Source of the DNA: a virus
DNA: 64,000 nt
Reading direction: 5' to 3' (one strand)
Virus record (IMG/VR): IMGVR_UViG_3300006310_000773
Position 1 is the stretch's first letter, and every line of letters starts with the position of its first letter. Below are positions 4,927-6,300 of this stretch, piece after piece. The translations under genes were made by a program, and so were the position numbers. The notes under the pieces were generated by a model. It saw nothing but the letters and a program-made list of their open reading frames with translations. It had not been told where the DNA came from and did no database searches.

Positions 4927-5620
4927 TGTCTCCTTTTTCGATTTCCTTTGGATATGGCAAAATAGTATAAGTTAATTTCTTTATTAGTTCCCTTTTACGT
5001 CTTTTATTTGCATTAAAGACAACATATCTAAACTTTAAAGATCTCTCTCTTCTATATATATTTTCTTCTCCAAACATCTCTATGAGCTTTTCTACTCTGT
5101 TCTTTTGTCCTCTAAATTTATCAGTAATACTTGCAGGATGTAAATCCAAACCTTTTATTGCAAGATCTGAAGTATGTCTTTTATTCATTCCTATGTAATG
5201 CCAATTCGATGATTGATAAACTGTGCCCAAATGGTTCATTGATGAATCGGCATAAGATATTATAATCTCTTTATCCAATTTTTTAATTGAATTTGAGATA
5301 AGAAAACTTTCTCCATTTTTAGGTACAGCATCGTCTATCCAGAGTCTTGTCAACTCATAGATATTATTCATTTCATCCGCACCACAAAGGGATTTGAGGA
5401 TTGGATTATAGGCGGGAACTCCGTAGCAAACGACACCCTTTAATGTTCCTCCAAAGAACCCACCTTTTTCAAAAATGCCATAAGCCTTAGAACATGGGGC
5501 AACACGATGAAGATAATGATTTTTTATCACTATATCCAATGCTGCTCTTGTTTCTATGGGCTCGACTGTATAATCAGCCTTTGATAGCTTTTCTTGCTTT
5601 TCCGCCGATTGGGATCTCAC
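4901..5620 (-). CDS. Mom-like DNA-modifying GNAT-fold protein (copy 1)
   Basis: HYLH, ELTRLW, PKNGESFLIS, ISYAD..HLGTVYQSSNWHYIG motifs; start uncertain (GTG, overlaps hsp20). Confidence 0.72.
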   Translation of the reverse strand: MRSQSAEKQEKLSKADYTVEPIETRAALDIVIKNHYLHRVAPCSKAYGIFEKGGFFGGTLKGVVCYGVPAYNPILKSLCGADEMNNIYELTRLWIDDAVPKNGESFLISNSIKKLDKEIIISYADSSMNHLGTVYQSSNWHYIGMNKRHTSDLAIKGLDLHPASITDKFRGQKNRVEKLIEMFGEENIYRRERSLKFRYVVFNANKRRKRELIKKLTYTILPYPKEIEKGDNDGKLTTK

Positions 5621-6065
5621 GTGGTTTCTTGTAATCAGGGATGATTTGCTCCAAATGTATTGTTAACATACCATCAACAAGATCCGCATCTTTTATTTCA
5701 ACATCATCAGCAATTGTCCAAGAACGTTTAAATGTTCTTGTTGCAATTCCTTGATGTACAAATTCATGGGATTCATTTACAGTTTGTTTCTCATTAGAAG
5801 AAACGGTTAATACACCATTCTCAACATGAACAGAAATATCATCTTTTGAAAAGCCTGCTACAGCCATTTCAATTAGATACTTATATCCATCTTTTTTGAG
5901 ATTGTATGGGGGAAATCCACCACTATTGATTGAATGATGAACTGTACCAAGATCATCAAATAAACGATTAAATATTCCATCAAATCCGACAGAAACATTT
6001 AATGCTCTTTCTATATCTTGGGGTCGTGCGAATGGAAAATTCGCGAGTGCGCTAGTTGTTACCAT
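5574..6065 (-). CDS. hsp20: Small heat shock protein (Hsp20/IbpA-like)
   Basis: FPPYNL, IEMAVAGF, HQGIATRTFKRSW, ADLVDGMLTI, C-terminal IPI motif. Confidence 0.95.
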   Translation of the reverse strand: MVTTSALANFPFARPQDIERALNVSVGFDGIFNRLFDDLGTVHHSINSGGFPPYNLKKDGYKYLIEMAVAGFSKDDISVHVENGVLTVSSNEKQTVNESHEFVHQGIATRTFKRSWTIADDVEIKDADLVDGMLTIHLEQIIPDYKKPREIPIGGKARKAIKG

Positions 6066-6159
6066 ATATCCTCCTTATAAAGCGAGGTTAATAAATTACC
6101 CACTCCATAGCACATGGCAGTGGGTTTGAGTTATGAGGTTTTCACTATGAACAACCTCA
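6066..6159 (-). ncRNA. ROSE-like RNA thermometer in the hsp20 5' leader
   Basis: Three hairpins (6134-6159, 6098-6125, 6070-6087); the last is CCUC-G-CUU/UAU/AAG-GAGG, with UCGCU pairing the SD and a bulged G. Confidence 0.7.
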
Positions 6160-6288
6160 GTCGCGCCAACCTTCTCCTTTTAAGAGATGTTCGCAGCGAT
6201 GTTTAAAAACTATCCAGATTAATTCTATAAATGAATCCGCAACATAAGTGCCAGATCCTTTAACGGTTAGTTTAAATTCTTTTTTCAT
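6157..6288 (-). CDS. Small hypothetical protein (43 aa, not in the ORF track)
   Basis: MKKEFKLTVKGSGTYVADSFIELIWIVFKHRCEHLLKGEGWRD; ATG 4 nt after a TATAAATA late promoter. Confidence 0.55.
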   Translation of the reverse strand: MKKEFKLTVKGSGTYVADSFIELIWIVFKHRCEHLLKGEGWRD

Positions 6289-6292
6289 AATC

Positions 6293-6300
6293 TATTTATA
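6293..6300 (-). promoter_or_regulatory. T4-type late promoter
   Basis: TATAAATA on the minus strand. Confidence 0.6.

Follow-up and report, generated by a model that had tools for sequence, protein, structure and literature searches.

Does a small heat-shock gene carried by a marine phage possess its own RNA thermometer? The question arises from a 64,000-nt stretch of DNA (the window) of the 89-kb IMG/VR virus fragment IMGVR_UViG_3300006310_000773, in which an initial annotation had read the RNA in front of hsp20 as a ROSE-like element, with either temperature-gated translation or autoregulation by Hsp20 as its consequence.

The hsp20 gene, its leader hairpins and the upstream ORF

The source is a marine T4-like phage. 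The hsp20 coding sequence (positions 5574 to 6065, minus strand) encodes a 163-aa IbpA-like small heat-shock protein, which matched Pfam HSP20 (1.4e-16) and PHROG 432 (1.5e-40); its top NCBIfam match was IbpA (NF008013) at 96.7 bits, which is under the equivalog cut-off. Pfam assigned the surrounding genes to a RegA translational repressor, a dUTPase-like protein, a Mom-like protein and an M15 peptidase. A DNA similarity search of the window against phages gave no match, and relatives were found at the protein level only: 507 phage records in the collection searched, mostly of cyanophages, contained a relative of the window Hsp20, and the nearest one among cultured phages was that of Pelagibacter phage HTVC008M (42% identity). 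The hsp20 gene is among the commonest host-like genes of marine T4-like phages.

Reading of the minus strand and RNAfold confirmed the hairpin sequences and coordinates given by the initial annotation, with one bulged G in the 5' arm of each hairpin. Hairpin 1 (UGAGGUU-G-UUCA/UAG/UGAA-AACCUCA, 6134-6159, minus strand) has its bulged G at 6152 and, as had been noted, its first bases are the stop codon of a 43-aa ORF (UGA at 6159). Hairpin A (hairpin 2 of the annotation; ACCCACU-G-CCAU/GUGCU/AUGG-AGUGGGU, 6098-6125, minus strand) has its bulged G at 6118 and contains a conserved G-CC...GG core. It is followed on the same strand by an A/U-rich single-stranded spacer, AAUUUAUUAA (6088-6097), the length and sequence of which differ among relatives, and then by the RBS hairpin, hairpin B (hairpin 3 of the annotation; CCUC-G-CUU/UAU/AAG-GAGG, 6070-6087, minus strand), with its bulged G at 6083. 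The anti-Shine-Dalgarno (anti-SD) arm of hairpin B, CCUC-G-CUU, holds the ROSE motif UCGCU at 6085-6081, the loop is UAU and the SD arm is AAG-GAGG (6076-6070). The proposed occlusion of the SD through UCGCU was reproduced by RNAfold, in which 6085-6081 paired with the AGGA of AAGGAGG, and the AUG of hsp20 at 6065 was unpaired, 4 nt (AUAU) past hairpin B.

The minimum free energy (MFE) structure of 6165-6050 contained hairpins 1, A and B together with a short stem that closes the structure by pairing the 5' end with the first hsp20 codons; its energy was -34.2 kcal/mol (z -3.37, with one of 200 shuffles as good), and G6083 was unpaired in it. Folded singly, hairpins 1, A and B had energies of -9.1 (z -3.2), -14.9 (z -3.7) and -4.4 kcal/mol (z -2.9), respectively. 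Among the 30 window genes with a recognisable RBS, that of hsp20 was the most occluded, being 0.88 paired at 37 °C versus a median of 0.39. A fourth hairpin (hairpin 0, 6161-6199, minus strand), described in the annotation as weaker, is indeed present within the last 13 codons of the 43-aa ORF, where UCUCUU pairs with an SD-like AGGAGA; at -16 kcal/mol (z -3.5), however, it is the most stable of the four. A counterpart occupies the same codons of the small ORF in a related viral locus, L016, but is not better than shuffled sequences there (z -0.6).

The 43-aa ORF itself (MKKEFKL...KGEGWRD; 6157-6288, minus strand) had no match in Pfam or PHROG. It is a genuine conserved gene, because it shares 45% identity with a 43-aa ORF at the same place in L016 (L016:190-362 region) and because 8 of its 12 variable sites among nearly identical loci fall at third codon positions (manual count in alignment A1). 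The sequence TATAAATA (6293-6300, minus strand) lies 5 nt before its ATG and might serve as a -10 box or as a T4-late-type promoter. We did not retain it as a late promoter, and any promoter role is put forward tentatively, because the window contains no excess of the motif (8 found versus 14 expected). At the corresponding place, L016 has TTGACA-N16-TATAAT, which ends 10 nt before the ATG of the small ORF. Since the promoter-like box ends 5-10 nt before the ATG and no SD sequence precedes the start of the 43-aa ORF, the mRNA of the small ORF may be leaderless or nearly so. No promoter-like site was found between the small ORF and hsp20 in the window, where hairpin 1 and CAUAACUCA stand at the place at which most relatives have a sigma-70-like promoter with -35 and -10 boxes, and a transcript starting from TATAAATA probably carries both the 43-aa ORF and hsp20. 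The suggestion that translation of hsp20 is also coupled to the upstream ORF fared less well. With some 90 nt and hairpin A between the UGA of that ORF and the hsp20 start, such coupling is unlikely, and in most relatives a promoter occupies the place of hairpin 1.

Conservation of the leader in phages and SAR11

Seven IMG/VR contigs were nearly identical to the window. Two of them, L002 and L003, showed a compensatory change from U-A to C-G in hairpin 1, and L005 an A-to-G change that retained a wobble pair; a counterpart of hairpin 1 was also present in L012 and L013. In L002 (773-800) and L003, the sequence of hairpin A (window 6098-6125) was replaced by an unrelated sequence that still folds, with hairpins 1 and B unchanged, and this looks like a local swap of one module.

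When 80 more distant viral loci were added (protein identity, 40-52%), inspection by eye revealed a shared plan in approximately 70 of them and in the cultured pelagiphages HTVC008M and Mosig. A sigma-70-like promoter (TTGACA-N17-TATAAA) comes first; next is hairpin A, whose stem is variable and whose Y-G-CC...GG-R core is conserved; an A/U-rich spacer then leads to hairpin B, in which YUY-G-CUU pairs with AAG-GAG. The module was also seen by eye in the cyanophages S-SM1, Syn30, P-RSM4 and S-H38 and in the podophage HTVC115P.

Alignment of the leaders with MAFFT put the loops and the SD arm out of register and was therefore not used. Instead, a covariance model of the two-hairpin hsp20 leader (R1) was built with a hand-written structure from six distant phage leaders of equal geometry, and all sequences were realigned to it. 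Searching 221 kb (85 viral hsp20 loci and the window) with R1 gave 65 matches at E values up to 0.05. All but two of them (63) were on the coding strand with their end at the hsp20 start codon; L080 and L085 supplied the exceptions, which were upstream of an intervening ORF. The match in the window (6063-6126, minus strand; 27.1 bits, E 0.0035 in this search) was the sole one both in the window and in the 89-kb virus record.

Some viral contigs have a further ORF immediately before hsp20 (74 aa in L080, L080:411-1180). The ROSE-like leader precedes that upstream ORF in L080 and L085, which suggests that the ORF and hsp20 form a two-gene unit; no leader was found in five further loci of this arrangement (L061, L067, L084, L087 and L089). 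Other RNA elements were also noted beside the viral gene: a glutamine riboswitch just 3' of hsp20 (L060:1207-1258; Rfam RF01739, 68 bits, above the threshold), and tRNA genes nearby in HTVC008M (L010:673-743) and in a viral contig (L017:1166-1235), with Rfam tRNA scores of 49.5 and 44.8 bits, respectively.

The initial annotation had named covariation across phage hsp20 leaders as a test, and the outcome favoured the structure: hairpin A covaries strongly, and the module is conserved in both phage and bacterial loci. Across 56 distinct phage rows, which were fitted to R1 and hence lean towards its structure, standard pairs made up 97.1% of cells, versus 78.6% after shuffling (none of 500 shuffles was as high) and at most 66% when the arms were slid by 1-3 columns. 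Both-sided changes occurred in six of the eight pairs of hairpin A; hairpin B had four invariant pairs, two U.G/C-G pairs and one compensatory pair. By eye, the inner stem varied as GCC/GGG, GCUC/GAG, GCU/AG and GCG/CG. Because the alignment was fitted to the model, it is the slid controls and these variants seen by eye that carry the covariation argument. The bulged G was kept in 55 of the 56 phage rows in each hairpin, and in 63 (hairpin B) and 62 (hairpin A) of 64 bacterial rows; the U(U/C)GCU motif was present in all 56 phage rows and all 64 bacterial rows, and the YGCU core was kept along with the bulged G of hairpin B in 55 and 63 of them, respectively.

The leader is not confined to phages. 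R1 matched directly before the start codon in 75 of 80 bacterial hsp20 loci, mostly of SAR11. Most of these loci lie on Pelagibacteraceae contigs of up to 953 kb, and these leaders are therefore chromosomal. Two whole SAR11 genomes had one R1 match each, and a match was found in 45 of 81 sampled Pelagibacteraceae genomes, many of them incomplete, nearly always exactly once. The hsp20 leader was likewise the single R1 match in the whole genomes of HTVC008M, Mosig and HTVC115P, and the better of two in that of S-SM1. Among the five cyanophage and podophage leaders recognised by eye, R1 matched four, with weaker scores, and missed that of S-H38. Secondary matches in P-RSM4 and S-SM1 lay inside coding genes and were regarded as noise; the top match in P-RSM4 was also weak and intragenic. 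A second GCUU..AAGGAG in the window, at 1054-1066, lies inside a 343-aa gene that we take to be recA/uvsX-like and was treated as a chance occurrence. The association of the module with hsp20 is strict in phages and SAR11.

A quick Hsp20 tree grouped the clade of the window with L012/13 and L016/19. The SAR11 clade lay elsewhere, with a sister clade that consisted mostly of viral contigs and included the myophages HTVC008M and Mosig; the tree was poorly resolved, and no direction of transfer could be read from it. In the same tree, Hsp20 proteins on six contigs of metagenome-assembled genomes (MAGs; L093, L107, L122, L166, L094 and L131), labelled Acidimicrobiales, Porticoccaceae, Neomarinimicrobiota, Parcubacteria and Flavobacteriales, nested within phage clades. 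These contigs may represent phage DNA that was binned into MAGs.

Relation to ROSE families and the possible sensing of temperature

ROSE-like elements are defined by two to four hairpins, the last of which contains the RBS in imperfect pairing with U(U/C)GCU and a predicted bulged G, and they typically precede small heat-shock genes of alpha- and gamma-proteobacteria (PMC3669281, PMC11342760, PMC11182007). The ROSE-like reading of the annotation agrees with this definition. The anti-SD U(U/C)GCU, the predicted bulged G and the RBS in the last hairpin are all present and are conserved with covariation; hairpins A and B form the conserved pair, to which hairpins 1 and 0 are additional; a stable upstream hairpin precedes a labile SD hairpin in silico; and the downstream gene is of the IbpA type, both by its Pfam HSP20 and NCBIfam matches and by the like leader on chromosomal hsp20 genes of SAR11.

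The curated models did not recognise the leader. A cmsearch of the window with the Rfam ROSE models (RF00435, RF02523 and others in release 15) gave no ROSE match up to an E value of 10, RF02523 (ROSE_3) had no match on the whole virus record, and SAR11 leaders had no Rfam ROSE match at E values up to 5. However, three viral relatives (L055, L088 and L081) aligned to the full length of ROSE_3, including both hairpins, with 31.3, 27.7 and 25.9 bits, respectively, where the gathering threshold is 43. In these alignments hairpin A of the relatives corresponds to hairpin I of ROSE_3, including the G bulge before CC...GG. Since the relatives align to ROSE_3 below its threshold and the window and SAR11 leaders do not match, the marine module is a ROSE-like leader, divergent and rich in AT, which escapes the curated models.

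The closest counterpart is the short ROSE-like element of Pseudomonas ibpA (Krajewski et al. 2013, PMC3669281), of which ROSE_3 is a two-hairpin model. Both have two hairpins within about 60 nt, a single-stranded spacer, a free AUG and an IbpA-type gene downstream; in both, hairpin I is stable, with a G bulge before the CC...GG inner stem, and hairpin II is labile, with U(U/C)GCU and a bulged G pairing with the RBS. Unlike the Pseudomonas element, the marine leaders are very AT-rich and much weaker (hairpin B, -1 to -4 kcal/mol versus -7.8 kcal/mol at 37 °C for hairpin II of the ROSE_3 consensus), and most of them are without flanking G-C clamp pairs. Their carriers also differ, being phages and SAR11, and their scores lie under the gathering threshold, with the window undetected. 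The window element further differs in that it probably lies within a longer transcript behind the 43-aa ORF and has one or two extra bulged-G hairpins. With the classical ROSE of rhizobia and other alpha-proteobacteria (RF00435; three to four hairpins) it shares the multi-hairpin leader of a small heat-shock gene, the anti-SD motif and the bulged G, and counting 0 and 1 brings the window to four consecutive hairpins; in contrast to that family, it gave no Rfam match, and its two extra hairpins overlap an ORF and its stop codon and are uncommon among the relatives. On balance, and with moderate confidence, we read the window leader as a translational leader of the ROSE-like, short two-hairpin kind with one or two additional hairpins on its 5' side.

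The phage RNA thermometers listed in a 2024 paper are those of lambda cIII, SPbeta blyA and one gut-phage sigma-70 gene, the last two being fourU elements (PMC11182007). The leader resembles them as a phage-encoded mRNA structure over the RBS but differs in structural class and in preceding a chaperone gene of lytic marine phages; there is no four-U stretch opposite the SD, the anti-SD arm in the window being CCUCGCUU. A literature search for RNA thermometers in connection with phage hsp20, cyanophages or Pelagibacter, in which subscription journals were thinly covered, found no description of one. For the SAR11 genome HIMB5, a survey described a motif at groES and reported none at hsp20.

If the leader works as other ROSE-like elements do, the stable hairpin A would precede a weak hairpin B on the hsp20 mRNA, in which CCUCGCUU would pair with the RBS AAGGAGG, with one G bulged and the start codon free. 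At low temperature or in the unstressed cell, hairpin B would block binding of the 30S subunit; warming would melt this imperfect helix and allow translation of the IbpA-like phage chaperone, with self-repression by Hsp20 on the leader probably superimposed. The Pseudomonas leader opens its hairpin II between 25 and 42 °C, and hairpin I remains closed; deletion of the bulged G blocks induction, and replacement of U.G by C-G lowered or eliminated heat induction in a ROSE-like element that had been validated (PMC3669281, PMC11342760). The window has C-G pairs where its relatives have U.G, and these count against thermosensing because such changes cut heat induction elsewhere (PMC11342760).

Predicted stabilities bear on the same point. 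At 37 °C, the -14.9 kcal/mol of hairpin A in the window compares with a phage median of -7.2, and the -4.4 kcal/mol of hairpin B is the strongest value of 54 phage variants (median, -1.2). The free energy of hairpin B nominally reached zero at 33-43 °C for pelagiphages and SAR11, 59 °C for S-SM1, 66 °C for the window and 79.5 °C for the ROSE_3 consensus. By nearest-neighbour curves, hairpin B of the window stays closed far above ocean temperatures, and the ROSE_3 consensus likewise stays closed to 55 °C. Because leaders of the ROSE_3 type respond at 25-42 °C versus the 79.5 °C computed, the nearest-neighbour model places the working range tens of degrees too high. The values therefore support no more than a ranking, and it puts the marine helices below the consensus in strength, as one would expect in colder habitats. 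Neither melting curves from the partition function nor a 1/Z estimate was informative about temperature, as competing weak folds distort them in AU-rich leaders. We infer that hairpin B would melt in the physiological range and control translation, and that hsp20 would thereby be gated by temperature. Conservation of the anti-SD arm, however, would also be expected for a non-thermal repressor site.

Possible self-repression by Hsp20 and other proposed roles of the leader

Such a site figures in an alternative that we regard as a credible minority view, namely that the leader is mainly a binding site for Hsp20/IbpA, at which Hsp20 of the phage or of the host, when free, would repress translation. 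Recruitment of Hsp20 to aggregates, for example during mass capsid synthesis, would relieve the repression; the signal would be aggregation and not temperature, although thermosensing may coexist with it. The precedent is E. coli IbpA, which represses its own translation through the 5' UTR and needs R93 to do so (Miwa, Cheng and Taguchi; PMC10474464; bioRxiv 10.1101/2020.04.20.050740). The window protein shares with that system its IbpA likeness, IbpA being its top NCBIfam match, and a structured ROSE-type 5' leader. Its residues R110 and F51 align with R93 and Y34 of E. coli IbpA, and the arginine and an aromatic residue at position 34 are kept in every phage and SAR11 homologue aligned, in contrast to the inactive IbpB, which has Q at the position of R93. 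Conservation of these two residues lends support to Hsp20 autoregulation. Hairpin A, moreover, keeps the sequence of its G-CC...GG core and its bulged G more closely than a stem that only stabilises would require, making this core a candidate Hsp20 binding site. Against this, activity has been demonstrated only for gamma-proteobacterial IbpAs.

A simpler role, without any sensing, seems unlikely to us: hairpin A would protect the 5' end, hairpin B would damp translation constitutively, and the module would be inherited with the gene. Stabilisation of mRNAs by 5' hairpins has been discussed (PMC3669281), and hairpin B of the window, as the strongest of the 54 phage variants, may not open at ocean temperatures; the probable internal position of hairpin A in a longer transcript, where it would not be a 5' cap, was also counted on this side. 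However, a helix that only damped translation could become perfect or lose its bulge, and yet the bulged G and the wobble pairs are invariant among Hsp20 genes whose products share only about 40% identity, and the module is tied strictly to heat-shock genes. Least probable by far, and largely refuted, is the explanation that these are ordinary intergenic structures, either terminators of the upstream genes or chance complementarity. The presence of AAUUUAUU after hairpin 2, and of UUUAAUUUU after the replaced hairpin in L002 and L003, would suit terminators, but a scan found no terminator-like site at hairpins 1 and 2, and in most relatives the module is downstream of a promoter and not at the end of the upstream gene. 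Chance is contradicted by the covariation and by the genome-wide specificity of the module.

A more speculative reading starts from the presence of a proteobacterial-type ROSE module on hsp20 of both pelagiphages and cyanophages. The hosts of cyanophages belong to a different phylum than those of pelagiphages. The leader might thus be a portable, host-factor-free sensor that moves between hosts with hsp20 and acts chiefly through self-repression by Hsp20 on hairpin A, so that chaperone output would follow the load of aggregating virion proteins and not the temperature of the sea; we consider this possible, though not the probable outcome.

If the ROSE-like reading is true, these phages would control a chaperone post-transcriptionally and independently of the heat-shock sigma factor of the host, and the few known phage RNA thermometers would be extended to a large and ecologically dominant phage group. 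SAR11, the most abundant bacterium of the ocean, would join the organisms with ROSE-type control. Because the marine helices are much weaker than those of the mesophilic Pseudomonas, the marine variants would also provide a natural series for the tuning of RNA thermometers to cold habitats.
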